From a virus (lineage: Duplodnaviria > Caudoviricetes): a DNA stretch of 36,977 nucleotides. Location of the stretch: the IMG/VR virus record IMGVR_UViG_3300012921_000044, positions 1 through 36,977 of that record; one strand, 5' to 3'. This document shows, piece by piece, positions 1,633 through 19,130 of this stretch. The position numbers and the translations under genes were made by a program. The notes beneath the pieces were generated by a model. The model saw nothing but the letters and a program-made list of their open reading frames with translations. It was not told the origin of the DNA and did not search any database. The first letter of the stretch is position 1. Every line of letters begins with the position of its first letter.

Positions 1633-1650
1633 GGCCGTTCCCCGGACCGA

Positions 1651-2996: not shown

Positions 2997-3220
2997 GGTT
3001 CCCTCACAAAGTTGCCGACACGGTCGAAGGTCTGGCACTCATTCACGCAAATGACGGTGCCGTCGGTGAAGCGCATCCGCCACCCTAACTGATAGCGGTC
3101 TATCGACTGGACGGTCTTTCCGACCAGCGAACGAAGGTCCAGCATGTCGCGGAAGTCGTCGTCGAGCGACGCGGCGGCGGACGCCAGGCAGGCGTCGAAG
3201 GTGCGCACGCCGCCGGTCAC
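2993..3220 (-). CDS. Hypothetical phage protein (75 aa)
   Basis: GTG start with GAGG RBS; LVGKTVQSI...MRFTDGT beta-rich segment. Confidence 0.7.
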   Translation of the reverse strand: MTGGVRTFDACLASAAASLDDDFRDMLDLRSLVGKTVQSIDRYQLGWRMRFTDGTVICVNECQTFDRVGNFVREP

Positions 3221-3687
3221 AGCACCGCCTCATTGACGCCGAACCGAAGCGCATTATCGTGAAGGCCGTTGGCGGCAATCGGGGGGATAGCGTCATGGGA
3301 ATTCTGATCACCGTCGCGCTCGCGATCATCGGCGGGCTTTGCGCCCTGGCTTTTCAGGACATGGTCGCTTTTAAGCGTCTTGCTCGCGCCGCAAGGCCGG
3401 TCCTGCGCTACGTCAACACTGTTGCCTTCGGTTCCCTTGTTGCGGCCTTGTATATTGGCGCGGACACCGGGCGCGCTGCCCAAGTAACCGACGTGGCAAT
3501 CATCGCGATCGTTTGCACGATGGCCGTTACCATCGTGCTTGTCTTTCTGATTTGGCTCCGAGAGGGCGTTTCCGGCTTTGTCGACCTGTAACACCCAGTA
3601 GGCGGAGAACGCCGCCGCAGACGCGACCACAGTTGGTAGAAGATACCAGCCAAGGCCACGCAGCCCGGCTTTCCGTTCGCCGCTCAT
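3217..3687 (-). CDS. Coupled ORF (156 aa) with N-terminal hydrophobic helix, overlying an antisense gene
   Basis: ATGA overlap at 3684-3687 and GTGA overlap at 3217-3220; C-terminal two-thirds looks like an antisense shadow. Confidence 0.45.
   Translation of the reverse strand: MSGERKAGLRGLGWYLLPTVVASAAAFSAYWVLQVDKAGNALSEPNQKDKHDGNGHRANDRDDCHVGYLGSAPGVRANIQGRNKGTEGNSVDVAQDRPCGASKTLKSDHVLKSQGAKPADDRERDGDQNSHDAIPPIAANGLHDNALRFGVNEAVL
3295..3591 (+). CDS. Small membrane protein, about 3 TM helices, antisense to the early operon (moron-like)
   Basis: 98 aa MGILITVALAIIGGLCALAF...; GGGGGA RBS; three hydrophobic segments. Confidence 0.7.
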   Translation: MGILITVALAIIGGLCALAFQDMVAFKRLARAARPVLRYVNTVAFGSLVAALYIGADTGRAAQVTDVAIIAIVCTMAVTIVLVFLIWLREGVSGFVDL

Positions 3688-3908: not shown

Positions 3909-3960
3909 TTCTCAAAATCCGCTGCGTTTTGGCCTAAATCGATTGCAAAGGGGAATTGCC

Positions 3961-4332
3961 ATGTTGTTTCGCGTTGCCATCGTTTTTTCTCTCGGAATGC
4001 TCTCCGCCTGTTCCGAACCCGAAGCTGCCCCGCTTGAGCGGTCGCGAGAGGCTGAACCGATAGCGGATATGGCGCCGCCCGTCGCGGCAGCGAGCTTGCC
4101 GCAGGGCGTTCGCCAGCCCACCTTGGCCGAACTGGCACGCGCGATCGGCGCATCTTGTCCCCAGCCCACCAAATCCGAATACAAGGGTGAGGCCGGCGGC
4201 AAGCATATGTTCGCAGTGAGCTGCGCGGGAGGCGATCAACTGGTGAGCGTCGAAACCGACGGCTCGACAAGCGTTCTTTCGTGCGAAGCAATGGAGCAAG
4301 TGGGCGGCGTCGGCTGTTGGGAACCCTGGTAA
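3961..4332 (+). CDS. Lipoprotein (123 aa), possible superinfection-exclusion moron
   Basis: Signal peptide with lipobox LSAC; AGGGGA RBS; four further Cys; convergent with the repressor. Confidence 0.85.
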   Translation: MLFRVAIVFSLGMLSACSEPEAAPLERSREAEPIADMAPPVAAASLPQGVRQPTLAELARAIGASCPQPTKSEYKGEAGGKHMFAVSCAGGDQLVSVETDGSTSVLSCEAMEQVGGVGCWEPW

Positions 4333-4333
4333 G

Positions 4334-4763: not shown

Positions 4764-5087
4764 ATGGCAAAAACCTTCTCCATCGCAGACCTTCGCCGCG
4801 AACTCGGACTTTCTCTTGAAGAGTTCGGGAAACGGATCGGCTTGTCGTCCAAGGGGAATGTGTCGCTTATCGAACGCGGCCAAGCCGCGCCGTCGCTCCC
4901 TGTCGCGCTTGCGATTGAAAAACTCTCGTGCGGCCGGATCGACGCCGCTGCCCTGAATTCCGACGTCGCCGCAGCGCGTGCGGCAAATGTCGTCACCTGC
5001 GGCACCTGCGACCGCCGGGCGGATCAGCCTGAAGTCGACGCCTGCACCGCGAGCAATTGCGGCCTTCGGCAGAAGGAAGCCGCGTAG
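4764..5087 (+). CDS. Cro-like HTH protein with C-terminal Cys4 motif
   Basis: LRRELGLSLEEFGKRIGLSSKGNVSLIERG HTH; CGTC...CTASNC tail. Confidence 0.88.
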   Translation: MAKTFSIADLRRELGLSLEEFGKRIGLSSKGNVSLIERGQAAPSLPVALAIEKLSCGRIDAAALNSDVAAARAANVVTCGTCDRRADQPEVDACTASNCGLRQKEAA

Positions 5088-5139
5088 ATGGCTGATGCAC
5101 CCTTCATCGTCGGCGTCCGTGGCGTGGAATTCGTGCCGT

Positions 5140-5421
5140 TCAGCGCGTCTGATCGGTCCGAAGCCGTTCCTGCACGCCAGCAAAAAAGGTCGCAATTCGA
5201 TGCGCCACAATTTCTTGCTGCGCTGCGCGGTCCGCTTCGCTGGGTTCGCTGCCATATGGCGCGGTTCCTGGAAGCATCGCCTGTCGGCAAAATTCGTCGG
5301 CAATCTGGGGAACAGTGTCATGACTGACCCCCGCTTGCCGCATGTGGATGGCGTAGATGTTTTCCAGCAAGAAATTGATCTTGCTGATTTCCGCGCCCAT
5401 TCGGATTTCGTCGATATCCAT
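5140..5421 (-). CDS. Hypothetical protein (93 aa, MDIDEIRMG...), antisense between cro and cII
   Basis: GAAGGGA RBS; helical globular composition; locally lower GC. Confidence 0.7.
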   Translation of the reverse strand: MDIDEIRMGAEISKINFLLENIYAIHMRQAGVSHDTVPQIADEFCRQAMLPGTAPYGSEPSEADRAAQQEIVAHRIATFFAGVQERLRTDQTR

Positions 5422-5729
5422 GAACCGTCCCTTCGTGCTGACCTTGAGGGGCCGCACGGTAGCGAGGGGCGCCGGCTGCGCCAATCCCGCCGTATGGGCG
5501 CCGCTGTCGTGCATTCGGCGCGCAGCATCCTTGTAATCCAGTTTCCCGTGCGCGCGTCGGCCCCGCCGCGCCACGGGGTGCACGCGCGGCGGGGGCTCCA
5601 TCTCCCCCCCTTGGCTCCCGCCGCGCAAATTGCCGCCCCCTGTTCGTCATGCCCCGATTGTGAAGCGTCGCCCTGCGCCGGTCACCGGGAAACGGCACCC
5701 ACTTTCCCCCCCGTCCTGAAGGCGCACTG

Positions 5730-6221
5730 ATGGCCCGCCCCGAAGCCCTGTCGACCGACGAACAAATCCTTGCGGCCGCCACGAAGAAGGCGATCCAGGC
5801 GGCGGGCGGCCTTGAGAAGTGCGAGGCCGAAACCGGCATTTCCGATAGCCAGCTGTCGCGTTGCTGCTCGCCGAACCAGCGGGACAGCATTACGATCCGC
5901 GACGCGGTGACCATCGAAAGCATCGGGCACGGAAACAGCGGCCATCCCCATATCCTGCGCGCCTATGCCCGCCTGCTCGGCTTCGTCCTCATTCCCCAGC
6001 CCGAAGGGCCGGCGGACGCCGACGGCCTGGCGCTGTCGGTGATGACGCTGACGTCCGAGCTCGGCGACGTCGCGCAGGCCATCAACGAAGCATTGCGCGA
6101 CCGCGTCGTCACGGCCGGCGAAGTCGCCGTCGCGCTCGAGCAACTCGACGAACTTGATCAGGCCAGCGCGACGCTGCGCCTGAAGCTGAAATCCTTGGTC
6201 GCGGCCGAGCCGAAGGGCTGA
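5730..6221 (+). CDS. CII-family phage regulator
   Basis: AAGGLEKCEAETGISDSQLSRC HTH-like; ILRAYARLLGFVLIP and ELGDVAQAI segments; position after cro. Confidence 0.8.
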   Translation: MARPEALSTDEQILAAATKKAIQAAGGLEKCEAETGISDSQLSRCCSPNQRDSITIRDAVTIESIGHGNSGHPHILRAYARLLGFVLIPQPEGPADADGLALSVMTLTSELGDVAQAINEALRDRVVTAGEVAVALEQLDELDQASATLRLKLKSLVAAEPKG

Positions 6222-6306
6222 CCGCGTCCCGATCCTCTCGGGGGATCACCGATCACCACGAAACGCCGACCCCGGACGGCCGGGGCGGAACCGAAGGGAG
6301 TATGTC

Positions 6307-6726
6307 ATGAACGATATTGCGAGTGCGCCCGTCACGCTCGACCAGCCCACCAAGGCGGCCGACGGCGGGCATGTCCCCGGCGCGTGCAACACGCTGGGCG
6401 ATTTCGTCCGGTCGCTGGAAGACGGTCAGTTCGATGTTGACGCCTATGCCGCGATCAAGAGGCTTTCCGCTGCCTTGACGGCCACGGCCATGTCGAACGG
6501 CGGGAAGGCGAAGGGGAAGGTGACGATCAGCCTGGACTTCGAACAGGAAGGTTCGGTCACCCAGATCAAGGCGGCCTTCAAGGTCGCGCTCCCCGAAGCC
6601 CGCCGTCCGAAGTCAGTCATGTGGAAGACCGACGACAACCGCCTGTCCCGCTCGCGTCCGGGGCACGGCGAACTTTTCGGCATCCGTGATGTGTCGGGCT
6701 CCACCCCCGGCTTCACCGACGCCTGA
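6307..6726 (+). CDS. Conserved phage protein, usual upstream partner of DUF2303 (YfdP-like)
   Basis: GGKAKGKVTISLDF motif; GGGAG RBS; synteny. Confidence 0.75.
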   Translation: MNDIASAPVTLDQPTKAADGGHVPGACNTLGDFVRSLEDGQFDVDAYAAIKRLSAALTATAMSNGGKAKGKVTISLDFEQEGSVTQIKAAFKVALPEARRPKSVMWKTDDNRLSRSRPGHGELFGIRDVSGSTPGFTDA

Positions 6727-7008
6727 CGCCCCAGCAAAGGAAAGCATTATGGAAAAGCCGCCCAGCCAATCGGTCGCCAGCACGTCCGATGATCGGACGA
6801 TCAATAATGTGATGCGCCACGCTTACCGCGTGCTGTCGGATCACGAAAAGGCGCAGATGCAGCGCGTCAAAGACGACGGCCTCGCCCTCTGGACCCTCTT
6901 CGACAGCATCGGGACCAGCCGCGAAATCGCGCTCGCGAAAACCAAGATCGAAGAAGCCGTCATGTGGGCCGTGAAACACATCACGGCCTGATGCCCCCAG
7001 CAAAGGAA
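6721..7008 (+). repeat. Direct repeat of about 22 bp (stop + RBS) flanking the Acb2-like gene
   Basis: GCCTGACGCCCCAGCAAAGGAA (6721-6742) and GCCTGATGCCCCCAGCAAAGGAA (6986-7008). Confidence 0.85.
6749..6991 (+). CDS. Acb2/Tad1-like nucleotide-sponge family protein (80 aa)
   Basis: YRVLSDHEKAQMQRVK resembles the Acb2 N-terminal YRxLS...MNRVK; REIALAKTKIEEAVMWAVK helix typical of the Acb2/Tad1 hairpin domain. Confidence 0.7.
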   Translation: MEKPPSQSVASTSDDRTINNVMRHAYRVLSDHEKAQMQRVKDDGLALWTLFDSIGTSREIALAKTKIEEAVMWAVKHITA

Positions 7009-7018
7009 GGAATTAGAC

Positions 7019-7990
7019 ATGGGCGACAAGCCTGAAACCGATAACACCGCCGCCACGTTGATGGCGCTGGTTGGCGCCGGCACCGGCTCGACGATCGAGG
7101 CGCTGCGGCGTCTGGTTGAAGACCATACCACCGCCAAACTTGTCGAACTGACCGACCCGGTCACGGACACGAAGTCCCCGGCCTTCATCAGCGGCGGACG
7201 GGTCTATCCGGTGAAGCCCGAGTTGTTCGACGGCTATCTGGAAGCGCCGCGCTTCCGCCGCGGGCAAGCGAACCTGACGACGATCGAAAGCCTGATCGAG
7301 CACGTCAACCGCTTCAAGGACAGCGAAAGCGTCCTGTTCGCGGTCGACGATCGCAAGCGGCCGTCGATTACCGCGATCATCGACTATCACCCCGCCGGCG
7401 GCATTGACAAAGCGTCGCCGCGCCACGGCGCGCACCGGTCGATGTTCGCCTTTCCGCTGTCGGACGAATGGAACGCCTGGGCCGACATGGATAAGAATCC
7501 CATGCGGATGATCGACTTCGCGGCCTTCCTCGAAGACCGGATCGTCGATGTGCTCGACATGATCGACGGCGAAGACAGCCTGCCCGAAGATATGCAGAAG
7601 TTCGTCAACGCCGTGGGCGGCCGGATCGCCGGTCCCTCGCGCCTGATGGACCTGTCCGTCGGGCTGAAGGTCTATGAAAAGGCGAATGTCAGCGAGGCGG
7701 TCAACCTCGCGTCGGGCGAAGCGCAAATCCAGTTCGCATCGGAGCATGTCGACGGCAGCGGCGCGCCGCTGAAGGTGCCCAACCTGTTCCTGATCGCGAT
7801 CCCGGTCTTCAAAAACGGGCAGTTCTATCGCCTCGCGGCCCGGCTTCGCTATCGCAAGTCGGCTGAAGGGCTGGTCTTCTGGTATGAACTGTGGCGCGCG
7901 GATCGCGCGTTCGATCATGCCTTCCGCGACAGCTGCGAACGGGCGCGGGTCGAAACCGAACTGCCGTTGCTGTTCGGGACGCCCGAATAA
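7019..7990 (+). CDS. DUF2303 (YfdQ-like) protein
   Basis: PRFRRG...TAIIDYH...SDEWNAW...FAAFLEDR...ARLRYR motifs. Confidence 0.88.
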   Translation: MGDKPETDNTAATLMALVGAGTGSTIEALRRLVEDHTTAKLVELTDPVTDTKSPAFISGGRVYPVKPELFDGYLEAPRFRRGQANLTTIESLIEHVNRFKDSESVLFAVDDRKRPSITAIIDYHPAGGIDKASPRHGAHRSMFAFPLSDEWNAWADMDKNPMRMIDFAAFLEDRIVDVLDMIDGEDSLPEDMQKFVNAVGGRIAGPSRLMDLSVGLKVYEKANVSEAVNLASGEAQIQFASEHVDGSGAPLKVPNLFLIAIPVFKNGQFYRLAARLRYRKSAEGLVFWYELWRADRAFDHAFRDSCERARVETELPLLFGTPE

Positions 7991-7992
7991 CC

Positions 7993-8226
7993 ATGCTCGG
8001 CCTGTCGCTCATCCTCGCGGCAGTTGCCGGCGCGGCGGCGGCGCTTGCCATCATGGCAGCGTCGTCCGCCGCGCGTTGGCGTGCCCGCGCCATCACCGCC
8101 GAAGGCTTGCTGGACCGCGCGGCCGCCCGCCGGTCGAACGCCAGCGCCCGCGGCAACGTTACCCGCCAAGCTGAACATCGCGAGCGCGTGCTGTCAAAGT
8201 GCGAAGAAATGCGGGGCGGCCGGTGA
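7993..8226 (+). CDS. Small protein with N-terminal TM helix (77 aa)
   Basis: MLGLSLILAAVAGAAAALAIM...; TGATG coupling to next gene. Confidence 0.65.
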   Translation: MLGLSLILAAVAGAAAALAIMAASSAARWRARAITAEGLLDRAAARRSNASARGNVTRQAEHRERVLSKCEEMRGGR

Positions 8227-9419
8227 TGACCGATACCCCGGCCTTGGGCGCCCCCGGTTCCGCCTTGTTCTGGATGGGGCCCGAGCTCGCGCGTGCTGGC
8301 CGCCTGAAGGGTCAATTCGCGCTTTTTCCTGATATCGAAGCGCGGGTCGCGCGCGCGGTCGGCCTGTATGTCAATCAGGCGCTCCACCCGGCGGCAACGC
8401 TGCTCGCCGCGTTGCACCCGCGCGCCGTCGAATATCTTGAACAGGCGCCGATCCTCGCGCTGGCTGCGACCTATGGCGGCAAGATCGAGAAGAAGCAGGA
8501 ACGCGCCTACGTCGCCATGAACTTCGCACCGATGATGGACCGCGGCGTCAAGCTGCGCGACCTGCTGGCCACCTATCGCGTCGCCTACCAGCTGCGCGCG
8601 GTGTCGGGCAACGCGATCCGGCCCGGAGCCTGGTCCCTGCTGAAGCGGATCACCGAACTGGTCGATCCTTCATCGATCGCGCAGGCCATCCCCGCCGACC
8701 CGACCAAACACATGTTCTGGCTCAACGACCTGGTCGAGCTTTGGAACGTCCTTGAACGGCGGCTGCAACATCGCGCGGACCAGCACGGCCCGATCCTGCG
8801 CTGGACCATGTTCGCCATCGCCCGTGCCGAAAAGGGCAAGCGGTTCCCGAAAGACGATGTTTTCCGCGACCTTCCCGCCATCCGCCCCGATGCGGCGACG
8901 CCCGGCGAAATCGCGGACTTCCTGATCGCCGAGCAGGCCCGCTTCAATCCGCGCTGGTCATGGGAACGCATGATCCAGGAAACCCGCGACTGGCACGAAG
9001 CCATCCAGAATGCGAAGTTGGACACGGTCGACGACGGCCGGATGGACGTCGAAATCGATTATGGCCGCGCGTTCCCCGTGGAACTCGAGGTCGACGGCTT
9101 CCAGTTTCACGCCCTGCGCTCGCTGCGCGCCCTGATCATCGAAGGGCGGGCGATGCACCATTGCGTGTCGTCCTATTACCCGGACGTCGTTTCCGGGCGC
9201 TGCCGCATCTATTCGATCCGCAAAGACGGCAAGCGCCTCGCCACCGCCGAGTTTCTCGCCTTCCCGGCGGCGCGCGCCGTGCAGGTCAAAGGGCCGTGCA
9301 ACATCAACCCCGGCGAGGCTGTCCGCCACGCGGCCGATCGCTTCGCCAAAGGGCTGAACAAAGCCGTTCCCGATGCGGCCGTCGCGGCGCTTTACGCGCT
9401 GAAGGACGGCCGCCCGTGA
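8226..9419 (+). CDS. PcfJ-domain protein
   Basis: C-terminal EGRAMHHCVSSY...IYSIR...ATAEF...QVKGPCN. Confidence 0.85.
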   Translation: MTDTPALGAPGSALFWMGPELARAGRLKGQFALFPDIEARVARAVGLYVNQALHPAATLLAALHPRAVEYLEQAPILALAATYGGKIEKKQERAYVAMNFAPMMDRGVKLRDLLATYRVAYQLRAVSGNAIRPGAWSLLKRITELVDPSSIAQAIPADPTKHMFWLNDLVELWNVLERRLQHRADQHGPILRWTMFAIARAEKGKRFPKDDVFRDLPAIRPDAATPGEIADFLIAEQARFNPRWSWERMIQETRDWHEAIQNAKLDTVDDGRMDVEIDYGRAFPVELEVDGFQFHALRSLRALIIEGRAMHHCVSSYYPDVVSGRCRIYSIRKDGKRLATAEFLAFPAARAVQVKGPCNINPGEAVRHAADRFAKGLNKAVPDAAVAALYALKDGRP

Positions 9420-9967
9420 GCGCGCCGAAGCATCTTTATCGCGAAGGCCTGCGCGGCCGGTCGCTCGAAAGCAAGGGCGGCATCGGCGGCGGGACGTTCG
9501 TCGCCCTGCTCAAATGCTCGCGCTGCCCGACTGCCGGCACGCGCAGCATGGGCACGATGCTGCCGCCCGAAGCGATCGACAAGAAATTCAAACAGGCCGG
9601 GTGGCGCGTCGATCCGCACGTCTGCCCCGACTGTCAGCGCAAACCGAAAGAAAGGCCCGCCCCTATGTCTGCCAGCCCGACGCCCGCCGCCATGAAGGCG
9701 CAGGCCGAAATGTTCCAGCTTCTGTCGCTCCATTTCGACGGCGACACGGGCCGCTATGCCAAGGGCTGGTCGGACGGCAAGATCGCGAGCACCACGGGCA
9801 TCGCCGTCGAGATGGTCACCGCCTTCCGCGTCGCGGGCTTCGGCGAACTGAAGGAAGCGCCCGAAATCGTCGCGATCCGCGCCGAGATTGCCAGCCTCGA
9901 AAGCCTTGTCACCGAACAGCTCGCGCATCTTCGCGGCGAGCTCGCGCGCATCGCGAAGGGCGCGTGA
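9416..9967 (+). CDS. Hypothetical protein with N-terminal zinc ribbon
   Basis: GTGA overlap; CSRC...KQAGW...HVCPDC; possible internal start at 9665. Confidence 0.8.
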   Translation: MSAPKHLYREGLRGRSLESKGGIGGGTFVALLKCSRCPTAGTRSMGTMLPPEAIDKKFKQAGWRVDPHVCPDCQRKPKERPAPMSASPTPAAMKAQAEMFQLLSLHFDGDTGRYAKGWSDGKIASTTGIAVEMVTAFRVAGFGELKEAPEIVAIRAEIASLESLVTEQLAHLRGELARIAKGA

Positions 9968-10398
9968 TGGCGAAGAAGAGCCTTTTCGCTGGACGTAACG
10001 CGCGCGCCCGCGCTTTTCGGCTCCCGGTTGAAGGCGCGCTGGCCGCGCCGTTGAAGAACAAGTTCGACGCGCGCAAGGCCGCATGCCAGCACGGGCACAC
10101 CCATGACAGCCGGTCCGAAGCGAAGCGGTGCAATGCGCTCCATCTGCTTCAGCGTGGCGGCCTGATCACCGATCTGGTCGTCCAGCCGCAATATTGGTTC
10201 GCCATCAACGGCGTGCAGGTGACGCACGAAAACGGCCGGCGGCTCGGCTATCGCGCTGACTTCGCCTATCGCGACGTCGAGAAGGGCACCGACGTCGTCG
10301 AAGACGTCAAGGGCGGCTATCGCGATGACGCCTGGACGATCCGCAAGGCGGTCTTCCGCGCGCTGTTCCCGAACCTCGAGCTTCGGGAGGTCAAATGA
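9967..10398 (+). CDS. DUF1064 family PD-(D/E)xK nuclease-like protein
   Basis: NKFDAR...DSRSEAKR...YRADFAY...VVEDVKG. Confidence 0.9.
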   Translation: MAKKSLFAGRNARARAFRLPVEGALAAPLKNKFDARKAACQHGHTHDSRSEAKRCNALHLLQRGGLITDLVVQPQYWFAINGVQVTHENGRRLGYRADFAYRDVEKGTDVVEDVKGGYRDDAWTIRKAVFRALFPNLELREVK

Positions 10399-10949
10399 GC
10401 GACCTTGCCCTCCTGACCAAGACGGCCCTTGTGCCCACATGCGCCGACTGCGGCGCGCCCCGCTTTTCGACCAAGCCGAAAAAGACGCCCTATTGTCGCG
10501 CCTGTGTCCGCGCCCACAATGCGCGCAGCCCGTCGCGGCGCGCGAAAGCCAGCGCGTCGATGAAGGCGCGGCTGGCAGACCCGCATGTCCGCGCCGAGCA
10601 TATCGAGCGCGCGGCCGAAGGCTTGCGCCTCCGGATCCGTGAAGACCCGGCCTTTGCCGAACGTCGCCGCGCGATCGGGCGCCGCACCGGACTGCTCAAG
10701 CGCGGGATGGCCCAGCACCCTGCCGGGAGCCCGCTTCGCCTCGCGAACGGCCGCAAGTCCGCCGCGACGAAGCTGGCATGGTGCCCGCCCGAATATCGGG
10801 ACGAATATCGCCGCCTGATCAAGCGGCAGAATATCCCGGCGGCGGAAGCGCGGCCGATGATCGAAGACATGATCGCGGCCGATGCGCGCCGCTATGCCGA
10901 AACCGGCGTCCTGCCCCAGTCCGCGCGAATCGAGGAGGCCGGAGCATGA
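10395..10949 (+). CDS. Basic hypothetical protein with Cys4 motif
   Basis: CADC...YCRAC; ATGA overlaps at both ends. Confidence 0.75.
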   Translation: MSDLALLTKTALVPTCADCGAPRFSTKPKKTPYCRACVRAHNARSPSRRAKASASMKARLADPHVRAEHIERAAEGLRLRIREDPAFAERRRAIGRRTGLLKRGMAQHPAGSPLRLANGRKSAATKLAWCPPEYRDEYRRLIKRQNIPAAEARPMIEDMIAADARRYAETGVLPQSARIEEAGA

Positions 10950-11149
10950 TGGAGCCGATTGAGCATGGCGTGATCATCCGGCCGTCCGAGCATATCCGCA
11001 TCGCCACCTGCGCCGATTACACCGGAACGGACGGGACGCCGCGCGCCGGTCCGCGCCGGATGCACCTGTTCCGCTGCCCTGACGGCCGGGACATTCAATG
11101 CGGCGGCAAGCGCTATTGCCGCGAGTGCATGAAGGAGCCCGGCCGGTGA
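10946..11149 (+). CDS. Small Cys-rich hypothetical protein (67 aa)
   Basis: ATGA overlap, GGAG RBS, YCREC. Confidence 0.65.
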   Translation: MMEPIEHGVIIRPSEHIRIATCADYTGTDGTPRAGPRRMHLFRCPDGRDIQCGGKRYCRECMKEPGR

Positions 11150-11151
11150 CG

Positions 11152-11805
11152 TCAGCCCTTTTCTTTGAACGGCTTGGCGCTGGCAGGACGCATGATCCGC
11201 TTGCCGACAATTTTTCCGGATTTGCTGTCCCGCTTCATCATGGCACTGCTCGCGGCGCGCGCAACGATCTCGCCGGTAACCTTAGCGCTCCCGCGGCTCG
11301 CGATCATACCGGGCGTCCCGTCGCGAGCTTTCGACGCCACGCGAAGAACGCGGCCGGTGAGGGCGTCCGTGCTTTCCGCAACGACACGCCGCATCTTGCC
11401 AGCCGGGCTGTTGTCGATCGGGTCGAGGCTGTCGATCGGCGCGCCAAGCGCCTCGGCGATAGCTTCCAGCGTAGCACGGCGCCCGGACCCTACTGGGGCC
11501 GCTTCAAGGCGCGCGATAGCCGCCTGGGTGACGTCCACGCGGTCGGCAAGATCGGCCTGCGTCATGCCGTTATACCGGCGCCAAGCGTAGACGGGGTTCT
11601 GCCCTGCACGGATCGCGCGAGCGACGACGGCCGGGACCGCTCCTTCTTCGTCGATGCTCTTGCGGCCCTTGATGGCGGCGGCGAGGTCGTCGGCGTCTTC
11701 TTCGGCGGCCAGAAGTTCTTCGAAGCGGGCGCGCGTGATCGTCACCAGTTCGGTGCCGTCATCGTCGACATGATGCGTCGGTGGACGCGTAGTAATTTTG
11801 TTCAT
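11152..11805 (-). CDS. XRE-HTH antitoxin (HigA-like) with long basic C-terminal extension
   Basis: ELVTITRARFEELL N-terminus; NPVYAWRRYNGMTQADLADRVDVTQAAIARLE HTH; AGGAG RBS. Confidence 0.88.
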   Translation of the reverse strand: MNKITTRPPTHHVDDDGTELVTITRARFEELLAAEEDADDLAAAIKGRKSIDEEGAVPAVVARAIRAGQNPVYAWRRYNGMTQADLADRVDVTQAAIARLEAAPVGSGRRATLEAIAEALGAPIDSLDPIDNSPAGKMRRVVAESTDALTGRVLRVASKARDGTPGMIASRGSAKVTGEIVARAASSAMMKRDSKSGKIVGKRIMRPASAKPFKEKG

Positions 11806-11841
11806 TGCTTGCTCCTGTGGTGGGATAATCGGGGTGCCCCC

Positions 11842-12105
11842 CTATCTGTAAACCTCCCTGCGATGGCCGACGTCCAGAATGTCGAGGACGTTGCCCAGAT
11901 CATCCATGATGACCCGGTAATCCCCGACGCGAAGCCGCCGAAATGCCGTGCCGCGCAATTCCGTCGTGTTGTTCGCGAGGCTGTCCGGGTCGGCGGCGAC
12001 CTGCTCAATTTTGTCCTCAATGAGGTCCGCAATCTTGGCGGGCATCTTTGCCAGCGCCTTATCGGCGGCTCGCGAATAGCGGATGGTTTTGAGCATCTTC
12101 GTCAT
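11842..12105 (-). CDS. RelE/ParE-family toxin (toxin-first, HigBA-like order)
   Basis: IRYSRAADKALAKM...FRRLRVGDYRVI...ILDVGHRREVYR. Confidence 0.93.
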   Translation of the reverse strand: MTKMLKTIRYSRAADKALAKMPAKIADLIEDKIEQVAADPDSLANNTTELRGTAFRRLRVGDYRVIMDDLGNVLDILDVGHRREVYR

Positions 12106-12111
12106 GCGGCG

Positions 12112-12140
12112 GATATAACGAATAACAACGAAGGTTTCAA
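12112..12140 (-). promoter_or_regulatory. sigma70-like promoter of the TA operon
   Basis: TTGAAA-N17-TATATC, 6 nt before the toxin ATG. Confidence 0.6.
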
Positions 12141-12185
12141 TACAAAAAACAACAAAGCATCACAAATTATAATGGGGGATGCAGC

Positions 12186-12431
12186 GTGATCCGGCCCAAC
12201 TTCCACGGCGGGCCGATGGTCGTCCGCTGCGATGCCTGCGCCCCGGCGCGCGTCGAAACGAAGGTGAAGACCTTCGCCGAAGCCCTGTCGATCGCCAAGG
12301 CGGCGGGGTGGACCGCGCATCATTGCGGCGCCGGTCACGGCTGGTGTCATTTCTGCCCCGACTGCACCGAACAGGCGGCGTGGACCGATCCGGGCAACCG
12401 GCTGGTCGCGCCGGGGACGGCTCGCCCCTGA
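12186..12431 (+). CDS. Small zinc-ribbon protein (81 aa)
   Basis: CDAC...KAAGW...HFCPDC; GGGGGA RBS; TGATG coupling to the methyltransferase. Confidence 0.75.
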   Translation: MIRPNFHGGPMVVRCDACAPARVETKVKTFAEALSIAKAAGWTAHHCGAGHGWCHFCPDCTEQAAWTDPGNRLVAPGTARP

Positions 12432-13837
12432 TGCGCTACCTATCCGTCTGTTCCGGCATAGAGGCCGCGACCGTCGCCTGGCACCCGCTCGGCTGGACAC
12501 CCGTCGGCTTTTCCGAAATTGAACCCTTCCCGCGCGCGGTGCTTGAGCAGCGCCACGGCGGCGTTGCAGTCGACTGGGACCATCGCTGGTCGGCCGGTCA
12601 GAATTACCCGCCGATTTTCGGCGATTTCACCAAGATCGAGGCCCATCATGTCGGACCAGTTGACCTTCTTGTCGGCGGAACCCCCTGCCAGTCCTTCAGC
12701 GTCGCCGGAACGCGTCTGGGACTGGACGATCCGCGCGGCAACCTCGCAATCGAGTTCCTGGCGCTGGCTAAACGAGTGGGCGCCCGCTGGGTGGTCTGGG
12801 AGAATGTCCCCGGTGTCTATTCCAGCTGGTCCGGTGAACCGGACGATGACGCGGTTACCGAATGGGTCGAAACAGCCGATTTCGTCGAATTCCTCAACCT
12901 CTTTCGGGAATGCGGGTATCGTGGAGCCTGGCGGACTATTGACGCTCAATATGTCCGAGTGGACGGGTTCGGCCGGGCTGTCCCCCAGCGTCGCCGCCGT
13001 GTGTTCCTTATCGGACATTCTGGAAACGACGCCCGTGCCATCCCGGTATTATTCGACCCCGAAAGCCTGCGCGGGCTTGCTGCGCCGCGCCGCGAAGCGG
13101 GGCAAGGAACTGCCGTCGCATCTGGGCTCGATCCTGAAGGGAATTGCGGCGATGGCGGCATAGGATCGCCCAGCGGGGCCGCCGCTACCGTCACCGCCAA
13201 ATGGGCGAAAGGTAGCGGCGGCCCCGCTGGGGATGAGTGCCAGAACCTTGTCGCCGTCGCGCATACGCTGCGCGCCGATGGCTTCGACGCCAGCGAGGAC
13301 GGCACCGGGCGCGGCACCCCTATTGTGACCGTGCCGGTAGCGCCGACGATCAGCGCGCGGACGCGCGGTGGCGGTGGTCTTGGCACGGACGCGGAGTGCG
13401 ACGGCGCGGTGTTTGCCGTGCCCTTCGACACGACGCAGATCACGCACTCGGATAATCGCAGCCAACCCAAGGCCGGCGATCCTTGCCATCCGCCCTCGAT
13501 CGCGTTTTCGATCAAAGACGACGGCCGGGACGTTTCCGAGGACGTTTCCCCTTGCCTGCGCAGCATGAACGCCGCGGACAGCAACGCGAATGCGGGCGGT
13601 CAGGTCGCGGTCCCGTCGGTCGACGGCTGGGCGGTGCGCAAACTCACCCCGCGCGAGTGCGAGCGCCTTCAGGGCTTCCCCGACGACTTCACGCTGATCA
13701 CCGTGCGCGGCAAACCTGCGGCCGACGGGCCGCGCTACAAAGCCATCGGCAACAGCATGGCCGTCAACGTCATGCGCTGGATCGGCATGCGGATCGAACT
13801 GGTCGAACGCGCCGTCGCGGCCGGGGGTGACCAGTGA
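12431..13837 (+). CDS. DNA (cytosine-5) methyltransferase
   Basis: Motifs I (SVCSGIEA), IV (GGTPCQSFS), VI (ENVPG), VIII (PQRRRRVF), IX (RKLTPRECERLQGFPD), X (IGNSMAVNV). Confidence 0.95.
   Translation: MRYLSVCSGIEAATVAWHPLGWTPVGFSEIEPFPRAVLEQRHGGVAVDWDHRWSAGQNYPPIFGDFTKIEAHHVGPVDLLVGGTPCQSFSVAGTRLGLDDPRGNLAIEFLALAKRVGARWVVWENVPGVYSSWSGEPDDDAVTEWVETADFVEFLNLFRECGYRGAWRTIDAQYVRVDGFGRAVPQRRRRVFLIGHSGNDARAIPVLFDPESLRGLAAPRREAGQGTAVASGLDPEGNCGDGGIGSPSGAAATVTAKWAKGSGGPAGDECQNLVAVAHTLRADGFDASEDGTGRGTPIVTVPVAPTISARTRGGGGLGTDAECDGAVFAVPFDTTQITHSDNRSQPKAGDPCHPPSIAFSIKDDGRDVSEDVSPCLRSMNAADSNANAGGQVAVPSVDGWAVRKLTPRECERLQGFPDDFTLITVRGKPAADGPRYKAIGNSMAVNVMRWIGMRIELVERAVAAGGDQ
12648..13163 (+). CDS. Nested +1-frame protein (171 aa) resembling the beta polypeptide of M.EcoHK31I-type methyltransferases
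   Basis: GAGG RBS before ATG; SSTSFGNAG...CSLSDILET...RYYSTPKACAGLLRRAAKRGKELP. Confidence 0.72.
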   Translation: MSDQLTFLSAEPPASPSASPERVWDWTIRAATSQSSSWRWLNEWAPAGWSGRMSPVSIPAGPVNRTMTRLPNGSKQPISSNSSTSFGNAGIVEPGGLLTLNMSEWTGSAGLSPSVAAVCSLSDILETTPVPSRYYSTPKACAGLLRRAAKRGKELPSHLGSILKGIAAMAA

Positions 13838-14280
13838 GCCTTCAAGCCGTCCCGCTCGCCTTCAGCGATGCCGCCGCCTTCGTGCAGCGTCATCACCGGC
13901 ACCATACGCCTCCGGTCGGCCACAAGTTCAGCATCGGCGCCGAAGCGGCCGGCGAACTGGTCGGCGTCGTGATTGTCGGGCGTCCCGTCGCTCGCGGCCG
14001 CGACGATGGTCTGACGCTTGAAGTGACGCGGCTTTGCACCAACGGCCATCCAAACGCCTGTTCGTTCCTTTATGGCGCTGCTTCGCGCGCAGCCTTCGCG
14101 CTCGGGTATCGTCGCATCGGCACGTATATCCTGAAGCGCGAGCCCGGCACGTCGCTTGCCGCTGCCGGTTGGAAGGTCGTTGCTGAACCGCGCGGCCGTT
14201 CATGGTCAGCCCCTTCGCGTCCCCGCACCGACAAGCATCCGACGGAACCGAAGCTGCTTTTCGAAAGGTCGGCCGCATGA
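13834..14280 (+). CDS. XF1762-family (Mom-like, GNAT-related) protein
   Basis: FVQRHHRHH..GHKFSIG...VGRPVAR..DDGLTLEVTRLCT...NACSFLYGAA...GTSLAAAGW. Confidence 0.85.
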   Translation: MSLQAVPLAFSDAAAFVQRHHRHHTPPVGHKFSIGAEAAGELVGVVIVGRPVARGRDDGLTLEVTRLCTNGHPNACSFLYGAASRAAFALGYRRIGTYILKREPGTSLAAAGWKVVAEPRGRSWSAPSRPRTDKHPTEPKLLFERSAA

Positions 14281-15470
14281 GCAACCATCTGATAACCGAA
14301 TGCAGCAAGCGCAAGATCGGGAGCCTGACGCGCTTCGCGATGATGTCCTATCTCGCGGACAAGGCGAGCGACGACGGCCGGGGCATCTATGCTTCGAAGC
14401 AGACGATGGCCGATGAACTCGACACGACGAAGAAGACCGTCATCGACACGATCAAGGCGCTGATCGCCGACGGGCTGCTTATCGTCGTGGGCGAACGGGC
14501 CTGCGTCAACGGCCACACGGTGGAATATGCGATCGACGTTGAAGCGCTGCGCGCCCTCCCGCTGGTCGCGTGCTGGCAGCGCAAGAAGGATCGGGAAGAC
14601 GCCCGCGCGACCAGTGAAGCTGCTACACCGGTTAAGCAGGGTGACCGGTATAGGAGCGACACGGGGAGGGGTATAGCAGCTACACCCAAACCCCCCTTGG
14701 AACCTATTCCCCCTTCACAGCCTGACGGCTGTGAGGCCCCCGCCGCCGATTTGGACGATCAGGAACAGGAAGCGGTGATCCTGCCCGGCGGCGGGCTCGT
14801 TGGCGAAAGCGGTCCGGGCATCACGCCGCCACGGCCGGCCCCCGTCGAACTTCCGCCGCCTCCCGTGTCGGTCAAGCCGCATCGCTTGCCTGATAGCTGG
14901 ACTGCGCCGCCGATCGCGGAGCTTGGCGACGTGTCGCGGGCTCTCGCCTCGCAATGGCCGTCCGGCGCCTACCAAGCCGTCGAAGCGCAGTTCATCGCCC
15001 ATTGGCAGCAAGCCGAAGGCCGGACCGCGAAGAAGTCGAACTGGGGCGCCGCCTGGTCGAAGTGGATCATAACCGAGCATGACAAGATCATGCGGGCCGC
15101 CAAGGCGGGGACCAGCTTCGCCGTGCTCGCCCCTGCCAAGCCCGCCAGCGCATCGCAGCCCGCGCGGCCGGTCGCTGCCAAGGATCGCGAAGACGACCGG
15201 TCGGCCGCGTTCCACACCGTGTTGGAGCGGGCCTTGGGCGCGAGCACCTATCGCCGCTACCTGAAGCCCGCCGCGATCCTATTCGAAGGCGGGGAAATCA
15301 CCGTCATCGTCGGCACCGACTTCCAGCGGTCCTACATCGAAACGAACCTGCTTCCCGGCATGGCCGTCGCCTTGGCGCGCTGGAATGCTCCGGTCAGCAT
15401 CGTGTCGGAAGCGAAGCAATCTCCCCCCAGCGAAAGGAACAGCGACCATGGCCAAGTCCGCCAAGCGTAA
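14277..15470 (+). CDS. Phage replication initiator: N-terminal wHTH, central DnaT-like segment, C-terminal DnaA domain-I-like module
   Basis: YLADKASDDGRGIYASKQTMADEL; LPDSW...FIAHW...KSNWGAAWSKW; LERALGASTYRRYLKP...TDFQRSYIETN; internal iterons. Confidence 0.85.
   Translation: MSNHLITECSKRKIGSLTRFAMMSYLADKASDDGRGIYASKQTMADELDTTKKTVIDTIKALIADGLLIVVGERACVNGHTVEYAIDVEALRALPLVACWQRKKDREDARATSEAATPVKQGDRYRSDTGRGIAATPKPPLEPIPPSQPDGCEAPAADLDDQEQEAVILPGGGLVGESGPGITPPRPAPVELPPPPVSVKPHRLPDSWTAPPIAELGDVSRALASQWPSGAYQAVEAQFIAHWQQAEGRTAKKSNWGAAWSKWIITEHDKIMRAAKAGTSFAVLAPAKPASASQPARPVAAKDREDDRSAAFHTVLERALGASTYRRYLKPAAILFEGGEITVIVGTDFQRSYIETNLLPGMAVALARWNAPVSIVSEAKQSPPSERNSDHGQVRQA
14611..14686 (+). repeat. 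Four degenerate 17-bp iterons, probable replication origin
   Basis: CCAGTGAAGCTGCTACA, CCGGTTAAGCAGGGTGA, CCGGTATAGGAGCGACA, GGGGTATAGCAGCTACA just after the wHTH coding region. Confidence 0.7.
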
Positions 15471-16089
15471 GAACAACAAGAAGCGCGGTGCGGCCGGGTC
15501 GCCGATGGGCAATGTCCATCCCCTGATCGCCCAGGCGGCCGGGAACGGTGCGCAGCTTGACCGCGGCGGCTATGAGGTCGTCCCTGTCCCGAACCCCTAT
15601 GGCGAAGTCGTGATCCGCGACGAACTGGTCCGCCATAAGGCCGTGCGCCGCGTGCCGCATTTCGAAACGCTCTATCGGTCGAAGGTCATCGACCGCCAGC
15701 AATTCGCCTGCCTCGAATGGTATGCCGAGCGCGCCGAGCTCGCGCAGTCGGGGTTGATCAAAAGCGCGCTCGACGTATCGGGGTGCGGAGGGTCGGTGCA
15801 TTCGCATAGCCCGTCGAACGAAGTTGCGGTGTGGGCACAGAAGGACGTCGATTGGGCGCGCTCGCTCATCCCCGCCGATTGTCTCGCGGCGTTCGATAGC
15901 GTGATGCTCGACGGGGTGAGCTTCATCGAAAGCGCCCGCCGGATCGTGTCGCAGGGCTATTCGCGCCACGGCGTCACGCGCCAGCGCCAGATCGCGCGGG
16001 AACAGTTCGGCCGGGCCGCCGCTGCGCTGACGCGCGGTGTCCTGCCTCGCATCGCGGAAATCGAAAGCCGGGGCATTCTTTGCGCTTGA
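15448..16089 (+). CDS. Putative late-gene regulator (Q-position, DUF6456-like)
   Basis: AAAGGA RBS; last early gene; LYRSKVIDRQQF segment and C-terminal sigma-4-like helices. Confidence 0.65.
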   Translation: MAKSAKRKNNKKRGAAGSPMGNVHPLIAQAAGNGAQLDRGGYEVVPVPNPYGEVVIRDELVRHKAVRRVPHFETLYRSKVIDRQQFACLEWYAERAELAQSGLIKSALDVSGCGGSVHSHSPSNEVAVWAQKDVDWARSLIPADCLAAFDSVMLDGVSFIESARRIVSQGYSRHGVTRQRQIAREQFGRAAAALTRGVLPRIAEIESRGILCA

Positions 16090-16113
16090 AATGTTGTCAG
16101 CACATGATAGTGT
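16086..16113 (+). promoter_or_regulatory. Putative late promoter
   Basis: TTGAAA-N16-TAGTGT with TG extension. Confidence 0.5.
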
Positions 16114-16132
16114 TTCACCATCGTCTTGAATT

Positions 16133-16167
16133 GCGTCCGCGACCTGCAAAGGTTCAGCGGACGTTTT
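16133..16167 (+). terminator. Leader hairpin/terminator between late promoter and HNH gene
   Basis: GCGTCCGC-GACCT-GCAA-AGGTT-CA-GCGGACGT then TTT. Confidence 0.6.
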
Positions 16168-16179
16168 CATATCCGGCCC

Positions 16180-16491
16180 ATGGCTAAGCGTCCCCCCAAT
16201 CTGAAGACCCAGCGCGCAGCACCGCGCGGATGGACCGCGACGAAGCGGACCAGCCGGCACGCACGCGGCTATGGTTCGGACTGGGACAAGCTGCGCGCTC
16301 GCATCCTCGACCGCGACCGCCACCTATGCCAGTCGTGCTTGCGCTCTGGTCGCGCGACGATCGCCCGCGAGGTCGATCACATCAGGCCGAAGCATCAGCG
16401 CGGCACGGACGACGAACATAATCTTGAGGCGATATGCACGCCTTGCCATCGGGTGAAGACAGCCCGCGAGGGCCGCGCGCGACGCGGCTGA
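16180..16491 (+). CDS. Terminase-associated HNH endonuclease
   Basis: RGYGSDW...LCQSC...EVDHIRP...NLEAICTPCH. Confidence 0.95.
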   Translation: MAKRPPNLKTQRAAPRGWTATKRTSRHARGYGSDWDKLRARILDRDRHLCQSCLRSGRATIAREVDHIRPKHQRGTDDEHNLEAICTPCHRVKTAREGRARRG

Positions 16492-16576
16492 CACACCAAG
16501 GAACCTTCCTGATACCGCGCCCACCCTTGCACCGGGCGCACTTCGGCCGTCGTTGCCATCGGATTGATTAGCCCTG

Positions 16577-16660
16577 ACGGGGGGCGGGTCAAATCTCTGG
16601 CAACGGCGGCCTTTAGGACCGGCGGTGGGGTCAAAAATTTGCGCGGTCAGATAGAACTTT
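16577..16660 (+). other. Probable cos packaging region
   Basis: G-run GGGGGGCGGGTCAAATCTCTG...GGACCGGCG...AAAAATTT between HNH and terS, as in HK97-like phages; exact cut site not determinable. Confidence 0.55.
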
Positions 16661-16695
16661 CTGTCGCAATTAAATTTCCAGTGTGGGGGTTGGCC

Positions 16696-16884
16696 ATGAA
16701 ATCGCACGTCATTTCCTACAGCCAGGCCGTCAAGGACATGGCGCCCGTCACGCTGACGCTCGGTATCCGCAAGGATGTTCGTTGGTCGCTGCGCTTCGCG
16801 GTGGCCCGCCTTCTTTTCCGGTTCGCGGCGTGGGTGCTGCCCATGCCGGCGACCGTAAGCTTCGACGATGAAGCGCGGACCTAA
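16696..16884 (+). CDS. Hypothetical protein (62 aa)
   Basis: GGGGG RBS; overlaps terS start. Confidence 0.55.
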   Translation: MKSHVISYSQAVKDMAPVTLTLGIRKDVRWSLRFAVARLLFRFAAWVLPMPATVSFDDEART

Positions 16885-17290
16885 GCCCGAGCTGGCAAAC
16901 ACGAAGGCGCAGCGGGGGACGCTTCGGAAAGACCGGGACGGCGACGTCGTCGTCCAGCCGGTGTCGCTGATCGCGGCGGGCGACCCGCCCATAATGCCCG
17001 ATTATCTTCAGCCCGCGGCCCGCGAAATCTGGATCGAGGAACTTCCCCGCGTGATGCTGGCCGGGGTGACCGAACGCGATAGCTCGCTGTTCGCCGCTTA
17101 CTGTTCGGTCGAGGCGCTGAACCGCGCGGCCTTCATTGCCGGGGAAGCCCCGCCCGCCGCCTATCTGACCGAACAGCGGCGCCGCGCCGAATTGCTCGGC
17201 ATCGCTGGGCCGCGCGTCCGTCAGGGATCGAAGTCGGATGGCGCGCAAAGCAGCAACCCGTTCGTCCGCAACGGCCGCCGACCCGCTTAG
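16868..17290 (+). CDS. terS: Terminase small subunit
   Basis: MKRGPKP...GTLRKDR; P27-like features; ends NPF. Confidence 0.88.
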   Translation: MKRGPKPELANTKAQRGTLRKDRDGDVVVQPVSLIAAGDPPIMPDYLQPAAREIWIEELPRVMLAGVTERDSSLFAAYCSVEALNRAAFIAGEAPPAAYLTEQRRRAELLGIAGPRVRQGSKSDGAQSSNPFVRNGRRPA

Positions 17291-19130
17291 CCCGTTCGTT
17301 CAGACCGCGATCGAATACGCTAAGGCGGCGGTCGCGGATCGGAAGCGCCGGGACTTTTGCGAGCTTGTGCGTCTGACCGCCAAGCGGTTCTTGAGCGACC
17401 TGAAGCGGGCGAAGCGGAAGGACTGCCCGTTCTATTTCAGCGAGTGGCACGCCGACGACGTCTGCGATTTCATCGAGAAGATGCCGCACGTCCAAGGTTC
17501 GTGGGATAGCGCGACGCTAACCCTTGAGCCCGCGCAGGTTTTCATCCTGGTCAATGTCTTCGGCTTCCGCCGCAAGGTCGATGATCGCCGCCGGTTCACC
17601 CGCGCCTATATCGAAGTCGCCCGCAAGAACGCGAAATCGACGCTGACCGCCGGCGTCGCGCTCTATTGCCTGACCTGCGAAAACGAGCTCGGGCCGGAAA
17701 TCATCATCGGCGCCACAACGGGCGCGCAGGCCGACAAGGTCTTCAAGCCCGCGAAGCTGATGGTCGAGCGGACCGGCGCGCTACGCGAGGCCTTCAATCT
17801 GAAGGCATGGGCCCGGTCGATAACCTGCGGCGATAACGGCGGGACGGTCCAGCCGATCAATTCGAAGTCGTCAACGCAGGACGGTTGGAACCCGTTCGTT
17901 GGCATCCTCGACGAACTGCACGCGCACAAGGATCGCGGCCTGTTCGACGTGATCCGGTCCGCCTTCGGCGCGCGCAAGCAACCGCTTATGTGGATGATCA
18001 CGACGGCGGGCTATGACGTCCGCGGCGTCTGCTATGAACAACGGACGCTGGTCGAAAAAATCCTGCGTGGCACCGTCCAGGCCGATCATTATTTCGGTAT
18101 CGTTTTCACGATCGACCAGGGGGACGACCCGTTCGACGAACGGGTCTGGGGCAAGGCGAACCCGCTTCTGGGCGCCGCGGTCGATATGGACGAAATGCGG
18201 GGCTATGCCGTCGAGGCGAAGAACAGCCCGGCGTCGCTCGGCGAGTTTCTGACGAAGCGTCTCAATGTCTGGTTGAATGCGGCATCCGCCTGGCTGTCGG
18301 TCGACCAGTGGAAGAAGGCCACGATCGAGGGCCTGGACTGGTCGGACTTCCACGGGCTGGAATGCACGATCGGCGCAGACCTTGCGGACAAGGACGATAT
18401 CACCGCCGTCGTTCTGGTCGGTCAGCATGAAGACGGCAAGATCATCTTCAAGCCGGTCTTCTTCATTCCGTCGGAAGCGCTTCGCCGCGAGACGCAAAGC
18501 GACACGGGGCAGTCGACCTATGGCGAATGGTCCGGTCACAATGGCGGCCCGCCGCTCGACGATGACGAACTGGTCGGCCTGCCGTCCCTTTTCGAGCTCG
18601 ACGACGACGGCAAGCCCGACTGGGATAAGCCGCTTTCCGAGCTTCCGCCAGTCTGGCGCACGCCGATCCTGACGACGCCGGGCGACTTCGTCGACCATAA
18701 CATGGTCGAAATGTTCATCCGCTGGGCGGTCAAAACCCAGTCGGTTCGCAAGATCGTCTTCGACCAGTTCGCCGCGGCGCAAGCGATGGCCTCGCGTCTC
18801 AACGAAGATTTGGGCACGCCCGACGATCCGCTTGCGACGATCCTGCACAAGTCCGCCGCGAACGTGACAAACCCGGCGAAAGAATTGGAAGCGCGGGTCC
18901 GCGCCAAAGACCCGTCGAAGCATATTGGCCATGACGGCAACCCGGTCCTGACCTGGATGGTGTCGAACGCGGTGGTAACTCGCCACGTCAACGGCACGAT
19001 CATCCCGAAGAAGGAAAGCCCGGAGAGCCCGAACAAGATCGACGGGGTGGACGGCATGATCAACGGTATGGCCCCGCTGGTCGCGGTCGAGCCCGACGCG
19101 TCAAGCGTCGTCGAATATACGGGCATGTGA
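17238..19130 (+). CDS. terL: Terminase large subunit
   Basis: Walker A VARKNAKST, Walker B ILDELH, ITTAG, GADLADKDD, KIDGVD. Confidence 0.97.
   Translation: MARKAATRSSATAADPLSPFVQTAIEYAKAAVADRKRRDFCELVRLTAKRFLSDLKRAKRKDCPFYFSEWHADDVCDFIEKMPHVQGSWDSATLTLEPAQVFILVNVFGFRRKVDDRRRFTRAYIEVARKNAKSTLTAGVALYCLTCENELGPEIIIGATTGAQADKVFKPAKLMVERTGALREAFNLKAWARSITCGDNGGTVQPINSKSSTQDGWNPFVGILDELHAHKDRGLFDVIRSAFGARKQPLMWMITTAGYDVRGVCYEQRTLVEKILRGTVQADHYFGIVFTIDQGDDPFDERVWGKANPLLGAAVDMDEMRGYAVEAKNSPASLGEFLTKRLNVWLNAASAWLSVDQWKKATIEGLDWSDFHGLECTIGADLADKDDITAVVLVGQHEDGKIIFKPVFFIPSEALRRETQSDTGQSTYGEWSGHNGGPPLDDDELVGLPSLFELDDDGKPDWDKPLSELPPVWRTPILTTPGDFVDHNMVEMFIRWAVKTQSVRKIVFDQFAAAQAMASRLNEDLGTPDDPLATILHKSAANVTNPAKELEARVRAKDPSKHIGHDGNPVLTWMVSNAVVTRHVNGTIIPKKESPESPNKIDGVDGMINGMAPLVAVEPDASSVVEYTGM

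Follow-up and report, generated by a model that had tools for sequence, protein, structure and literature searches.

A toxin-antitoxin cassette inside an early operon

The window analyzed here, a whole virus record of 36,977 nt, carries the gene set of a temperate phage: integrase, cI/cro, a CII-like gene, DUF2303, a methyltransferase, an O-like initiator, terminase and tail genes. Because its nearest named kin are sphingomonad prophages (for example, a Sphingopyxis flava prophage, at 63% for gene 10395-10949), the host is probably a sphingomonad. Scans of viral contigs for close relatives with gene 12186, the antitoxin or the toxin as query returned no match, and among the 20 of 74 blastn matches to annotated phages that were listed, only the methyltransferase and the Mom-like gene were hit. 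The early operon also encodes an Acb2/Tad1-type hairpin protein (6749-6991, plus strand; PF24729, 5.9e-19), likely an anti-defence signal sponge, and a coupled Mom-like DNA modification gene between the C5 methyltransferase and the replication initiator (13834-14280, plus strand; phrog_1384). Beginning at ATG 12179, the methyltransferase frame (12179-13837, plus strand) extends 84 codons farther upstream across gene 12186 with no stop, and the methyltransferase gene contains a 214-aa alternate-frame ORF (12519-13163, plus strand), which we take to resemble known overlapping ORFs of methyltransferase genes.

Two genes on the opposite strand separate co-directional gene sets of this operon, the gene map thus matching the layout of a noncontiguous operon (Table 1). 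They are predicted from their sequences to form a type II RelE/ParE-XRE toxin-antitoxin (TA) pair, with the toxin gene preceding the HTH antitoxin gene, an order shared by relatives. The antitoxin carries a C-terminal extension of about 90 aa (11152-11420, minus strand) with repeated D-x-x-T/S-G-R/K-I motifs, whose length varies among its few relatives.

On the operon strand, a 347-codon reading frame, hereafter the bridge, opens on a GTGA in which gene 10946-11149 terminates. It crosses the XRE antitoxin, the 36-nt spacer, the ParE/RelE toxin and an AT-rich region of about 80 nt without a stop, and ends in MGDAA-stop on a second GTGA, at which gene 12186-12431 begins. The initial annotation had described this frame, its overlaps at both ends and the RelE/XRE pair beneath it, all of which are borne out by translation and family matches. 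Both TA genes lie in codon register with the bridge, and the remaining two operon-strand frames across the site contain 7 and 19 stops. The likely start is 11146, judging from the AAGGAG 8 nt before it; other starts, such as the ATG at 11098 within the upstream gene, are possible, and the frame is open already from about 11083. Gene 12186 has its own GGGGGA site, as read from the sequence, and a six-codon ORF from ATG 12172 lies just before it. The AT-rich region is likely the TA promoter/operator; a scan for consensus promoters listed no site in 12106..12171. A candidate divergent plus-strand promoter (TATAAT, 12168-12173) has no -35 match, was not listed by the scan and is missing from the homologous locus L070.

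Table 1. Features of the early region discussed in the text (positions in the window)
Position	Strand	Feature	Remarks
3217..3687	-	Second bridge, 156 codons	Lies in leftward early operon; coupled by ATGA/GTGA
3295..3591	+	Second-site antisense cargo, predicted small membrane protein	Promoter-like site 3233-3260
~3961..4332	+	Lipoprotein-like antisense gene, convergent on cI	Transcription-unit border; unbridged, serving as internal control
5088..5730	+	Third bridge, between cro and cII	Crossed by an ORF chain (5088-5327 and 5320-5730) or a single ORF from ATG 5095; ends TGATG on cII
5140..5424	-	Third-site antisense cargo	L178 carries a homolog (46% identity), likewise post-cro
10946..11149	+	Upstream early gene, 67 aa	Tail carries AAGGAG ribosome site 8 nt before GTG 11146
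11146..12189	+	Bridge reading frame, 347 codons	Overlaps upstream stop with its GTG and downstream start with its TGA; no family match
11152..11805	-	XRE/HTH antitoxin, 217 aa, C-terminal extension	PF01381, phrog_7241; zero TTA/CTA/TCA codons
11806..11841		Toxin-antitoxin spacer, 36 nt	Leaves toxin and antitoxin in register with each other; L070 homolog has 48 nt
11842..12105	-	ParE/RelE-family toxin, 87 aa	PF05016 (1.9e-11), phrog_1213; zero TTA/CTA/TCA codons
12106..12171	-	AT-rich region	Homologous to L070 counterpart; sole stop-free frame across it is the bridge frame
12172..12189	+	Bridge tail, six codons, with ribosome site of next gene	Close relatives have three different tails, each ending on a next-gene start
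12186..12431	+	Downstream early gene, 81 aa	Weak phrog_9007; heads a coupled series that continues through the genes of the next row
12431..15470	+	C5 methyltransferase, Mom-like gene, O-like replication initiator	Would depend on read-through in the proposed model

The length of the bridge is not in itself informative. A stop-free in-register antisense frame accompanies 23 of the 38 window ORFs checked (one of the 38 is a mis-called integrase frame), and frame length was dropped as a signal, in agreement with the earlier proposal that the signal lies in the coupling at both ends. Under pooled phage codon use, the probability that both TA genes are free of stops is 0.33 (about 0.4 by hand, minus one mis-called ORF); the corresponding values are 0.78 for the spacer and 0.15-0.20 for the AT-rich/promoter part. 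For the whole doubly coupled layout at the main site, P is 0.07-0.09 when frames are randomised and the sequence is kept (frame-only null) and about 0.01 when codons are redrawn from GC3-matched genes and spacers are shuffled (full null). The other two window sites discussed below give 0.13-0.18 and 0.05-0.07, and 0.35-0.43 and 0.12-0.14, respectively, and the loss of stop-making codons at the main locus alone is not significant. A single site is thus suggestive, with significance coming from the comparative sets.

Other inserts in the window and related cassettes

The initial annotation saw the same arrangement at two further sites. At 3217-3687 this holds in that one coupled 156-codon frame crosses the insert, this frame belonging to the leftward operon and lying on the minus strand; the true-gene strand was assigned from coding score and layout. 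The N-terminus of this second bridge is a hydrophobic stretch, and homolog searches with the bridge and its cargo returned nothing beyond the window's own record. At 5088-5730 the interval (643 nt) is not one frame, but it is crossed by an ORF chain or by an ORF from 5095. A fourth antisense gene (~3961-4332, next to cI) is unbridged. The post-cro position appears to be a hot spot: a small, mostly unrelated antisense gene lies between cro and the CII-like gene in L132, L134, L142, L150, L161, L162, L178, L189, L207 and L211.

A profile of the antitoxin found matches in 39 of 401 family genomes, and one frame runs over both TA genes in 4 of the 26 related loci in which both were found. In an unrelated prophage (L070, identical to L118), the same TA family (51-55% identity) occupies a methyltransferase-to-primase early operon under a single 519-codon GTGA/ATGA frame that covers three antisense genes, all in register; its spacer and its promoter-to-start distance each differ from those of the window by 12 nt. 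A host operon (L072) has its TA pair crossed by one frame that opens at a TTGA and closes 14 nt into the following gene; this pair (6266-6997) lies reversed between CP-ATP-grasp and Alpha-E genes. Two further loci (L034 and L035) have a frame over both genes that is uncoupled and outside such an operon, and show the chance rate of an open frame. A third phage copy of the family, in L184, is crossed by an ORF chain, and those of L186 and L188, located at the early/late border, have no bridge.

Closer relatives of the window offer a view of how the bridge changes. Contigs from seven runs carry substitutions in it; frequent stops in the bridge frame of relatives had been named as evidence against the idea, and none was seen among the matches listed, nor any indel. 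Two of them (X2 and X3) have, in place of 11 letters at the bridge 3' end, about 778 different ones. By a hand reading of the loose ends in X3, the frame ends in M-G-G-A-S-stop on a TTGA that starts another putative gene, which in turn ends in ATGA on gene 12186. X13 has a third type of tail. In X5/X6 the 5' part of the toxin and the promoter region are replaced from window position 11896 onward and the antitoxin is kept; there the bridge frame continues in frame into the next ATG, with no stop on it. Thus, the last codons and even the next gene differ among close relatives, and the frame still ends on a start.

Two empty sites bear on the origin of these junctions. In L057 the homolog of the upstream gene is coupled directly to a methyltransferase, and in L007 the homolog of gene 10395 is coupled to that of gene 12186. 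Since the flanking families are directly coupled there, the junction signals are partly inherited, and the bridge may owe its initial GTGA and ribosome site to a junction into which the cassette inserted. What is to be explained, then, is that register and openness are maintained across inherited junction signals.

One explanation is that the bridge encodes a functional overprinted protein. Precedent exists in Pseudomonas phage Fc02, where, according to PMC9936078, gene 10 of a lytic operon lies over an antisense gene and has exclusion activity, and the hydrophobic stretch that opens the second bridge would fit. However, the main bridge has no Pfam, PHROG or NCBIfam match, the second matches only its own record, and bridge tails vary freely among relatives. 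The bridges of the window and L118 are 31% identical, within the 26-40% seen between TA shadows that are unbridged, and of 65 bridge peptides PHROG leaves 64 unmatched, the remaining one being marginal. We therefore consider this explanation highly unlikely, and the suggestion that bridges are overprinted proto-genes with a conserved product is not sustained.

Antisense islands in phage early operons

To place the locus in context, we assembled antisense islands from about 110 phage early regions and 40 chromosomal regions, in which a home-made codon model called genes and yielded 330 islands. An island was scored as bridged if a relay of up to four ORFs, each starting -14 to +8 nt from the previous stop, crossed the cargo and ended at the next gene's start or entered that gene in frame. 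The first set comprised 42 operon-internal and 42 border islands, chosen by flank identity from 131 auto-sorted islands and further cI-adjacent ones; mis-sorted cI/cro, host borders, late-operon, duplicate and low-score calls were left out, and this curation was done after outcomes were seen and was not blind. Before corrections, 35/42 operon-internal islands were doubly coupled, against 16.9 (frame-only) and 7.6 (full) expected. A homology check removed L157 (two islands) and L175, where the bridges are real genes, and L112 (the frame enters the next gene), and the upstream gene was reassigned in L184, L060 and L171. The corrected count is 31/38 against 14.3 and 6.6 expected, with one of the 31 weak (L184, 253 nt), and strict overlaps number 15 against 4.3 and 1.8. 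Of the seven failures, three are crossed but unclosed, and two (L125 and L188) are open to the next gene with no start at the upstream stop; four of the 38 islands are uncrossed. Border controls (3/42 bridged) and chromosomal islands (5/48, against 3.6 and 2.6 expected) are at chance.

We then fixed the rules and applied them to a held-out set of 86 new contigs with 56 islands, classed from gene identities before scoring into 14 operon-internal and 12 border islands; 30 were dropped (mirror views, cI/cro/cII as cargo, integrase, IS, host or unclear). All 14 operon-internal islands are doubly coupled, against 6.1 expected under the frame-only null (P 5e-7) and 1.0 under the full null, P values that overstate independence, as five related phages contribute 8 of these islands and a single cargo accounts for two. 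Only 1 of the 12 border islands is bridged, with 0.8 expected, and strict overlaps occur in 9/14 against 2.4 and 0.3 expected. The comparison with a null model proposed in the initial annotation thus supports part of its idea in both sets: doubly coupled open frames recur as a rule within these early operons.

Codon use in the cargo points the same way. The codons that place a stop in the opposing frame (TTA, CTA and TCA) occur 2 times in the 18 held-out cargo genes against 35.0 expected, and 14 times in first-set cargo against 34.6, whereas the three control groups match expectation (21 vs 21.7, 47 vs 40.4 and 71 vs 62.8). Selection is on openness and not on peptide sequence. One example is L245 (211-2580, minus strand), where one 789-codon frame at 54% GC runs from the methyltransferase stop to the Rha-like start over four antisense genes, including a HicB-like gene and an addiction module.

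These data bear on whether bridges are by-products, that is, GC-rich in-register shadow frames plus left-over junction signals, enriched by gene calling and curation. Open shadows are indeed common in the window, the single-site P values reach only 0.01-0.09, two of 26 TA relatives have the frame outside such an operon, and three first-set bridges turned out to be real genes and were dropped. Against this stand the contrast between held-out interiors and borders, the near absence of stop-making codons, a frame of the L245 kind and controls that remain at chance under the same pipeline. This explanation is largely refuted for the set, and we regard it as quite unlikely. Summed over the three readings that invoke translation, which are weighed in the next section, the doubly coupled open frame is very probably under selection across phages. 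The stronger proposal that antisense morons persist only if they are bridged goes too far: selection for the bridge is supported, but 4/38 islands are uncrossed and phage phi1026b has only partial chains.

Ribosome sites occur at 51% of bridge starts (n=45), as at ordinary coupled genes (51%, n=1284), compared with 6% of random positions (n=1200), and restart on the bridge is therefore plausible. The genes behind bridges have such a site less often, at 33% (n=45) versus 51% (n=1284), and most bridges have an exact ATGA/GTGA/TGATG overlap at the 3' end. Behind the gene for the tail assembly chaperone, a tail operon of L311 (12444-14652) contains an integrase and a second gene in reverse orientation; these are likely an embedded element and were left out of scoring.

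How an operon transcript might cross antisense cargo

The architecture is a known one, the noncontiguous operon; the bridge is its undescribed part. Literature searches, with supplements and subscription papers outside their scope, returned no description of bridges over antisense cargo. In the noncontiguous operons of S. aureus and phage 80alpha, as presented in PMC11034616 and PMC11087260, one or more antisense genes with their own promoter lie within an operon, phage early and lysogeny regions are among the sites, and TA systems are among the cargo; the present locus has this layout, with a putative promoter for the cassette. PMC11034616 treats the untranslated antisense stretch as a puzzle, explained by runaway transcription in Gram-positive bacteria. 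Proteobacterial phages differ in keeping the stretch translatable, whereas the 80alpha sites scored 0/3 bridged.

We favor, with a probability of roughly 60%, the reading that this is a noncontiguous operon whose otherwise untranslated stretch is kept translatable, with Rho polarity as the main pressure and ribosome hand-over as the second. A lysogen would express the cassette from the cassette's own putative promoter. Upon induction, a single early transcript would span the cassette site and pass through it; ribosomes would restart on the bridge at the overlapping stop and start, run through, and restart on the next gene. Their cover on about 1 kb of antisense RNA would keep Rho from ending the transcript before the methyltransferase and replication genes, and the bridge peptide would be a by-product. 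Rho is known to suppress antisense transcription and to cause polarity on untranslated RNA (PMC12360218).

Several observations set bounds on the role of Rho. The operon strand has no excess of C over G (319 C and 319 G in the window island; mean skew 0.011), and therefore no C-rich signature of Rho sites. A boxA-like motif occurs at chance (10 vs 14.2 expected), and Rfam gave no match in window 1-17500; neither result speaks to the absence of antitermination. Among well-known phages, full bridges are found at none of eight sites (lambda 0/2, P22 0/1, 80alpha 0/3, phi1026b 0/2; HK022, whose annotation is too sparse, and phi11 were left out of scoring), the partial chains of phi1026b covering 517 of 682 and 324 of 429 nt. 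The lack of a bridge at 6/6 sites in lambda and P22, which use N-type antitermination, and in the Gram-positive phage 80alpha is as Rho polarity would predict, but it fails to isolate Rho because the islands of these phages have 30-41% GC, which makes a bridge harder to reach. The annotations of lambda and P22 place accessory genes (sieB in both, bor in lambda) backwards in an operon, as here, but these have no bridge, with 10-17 stops per frame across lambda sieB, and N/Q-type antitermination is present.

Overlaps such as ATGA and TGATG are a signal of translational coupling, normally between real genes. The junction signals and the proposed pressure of ordinary coupling and Rho polarity are the same here, the difference being that the frame would exist for the crossing. 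Bridges might instead be selected and translated for coupling itself, the next gene needing a ribosome that terminates on its start, with Rho a minor factor. The exact 3' overlaps, the scarcer ribosome sites behind bridges and the lack of C-rich skew would all be expected. However, gene 12186 has its own ribosome site, a short ORF such as the six-codon one from ATG 12172 would do without 1 kb held open, and the loss of stop-making codons extends over the whole cargo. We find this doubtful: with the full kilobase open, RNA cover fits better than hand-over alone, for which a short terminal ORF would suffice.

A third use of translation would be for ribosomes to shield the early mRNA from pairing with cargo mRNA and from cleavage by RNase III/RNase E. 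The sense and antisense transcripts would overlap fully at the site, regulation of noncontiguous operons by collision and dsRNA decay is described in PMC11087260, and ribosome cover has been proposed for ambigrammatic narnaviruses (PMC8316113). Nevertheless, 80alpha has such overlaps and 0/3 bridges, and we judge this use unlikely. According to PMC8316113, narnaviruses resemble the present case in that a homolog-less reverse frame is open opposite a real gene and its translation itself is thought to matter; selection against reverse-frame stops, which defines them, is what both comparative sets show. They differ in being eukaryotic RNA viruses with one fixed gene, no operon, no stop-start coupling and no Rho.

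A parallel to the Rho-based reading is eta of phage P4 (Forti et al. 1999, via PMC10111431), an ORF coupled to its upstream gene, as the bridge is at the GTGA and ribosome site of 11146; when eta is translated, termination is averted and transcription extends into the genes downstream. Eta, by that account, belongs to a protein family, overlies a region of immunity RNA and forms a regulated switch, whereas the bridge covers cargo of the opposite strand, lacks a conserved product and arises anew with each cargo. Neither a P4-type Bro-network protein nor a nested CI RNA was found here, given that the bridge has no family match and the Rfam search of 1-17500 was empty.

If correct, this reading would give a testable answer to a question posed in print, namely how, in bacteria that rely on translation to guard against Rho, the transcript of an operon gets past an antisense gene that is not translated. 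Codon choice would be shown to be selected from the opposite strand, the places open to defence and TA cargo in phages would be limited, and operon interiors could be told from borders by sequence only. The reading would also carry a warning for annotation, as long meaningless ORFs may still be under selection, and a design rule for reverse-strand genes in synthetic operons.

Whether a general rule follows, by which a backward operon gene in Proteobacteria and their phages persists only under a coupled, stop-free operon-strand frame, could in our estimate go either way. Were it true, bridges would be the proteobacterial answer to the noncontiguous-operon puzzle, a form of antitermination written in the codon choice of the cargo; they would decide where morons land, mark transcription-unit borders from sequence alone and supply a steady stream of translated raw frames for new genes. 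The rule would reach host operons, two of which show the bridge design (carA-carB over four TA genes in L087, and L072). A counter-example is L090 (5830-6579), where a TA pair lies reversed in the nuo operon before nuoG and a four-ORF chain covers 444 of 748 nt. The four antisense TA genes of the host carA-carB locus (G053:C1:1767500-1780000, 5003-6892) are XRE, RelE, VapC and VapB-like, and two chained ORFs of 146 and 489 codons run over them from the carA stop to the carB start.
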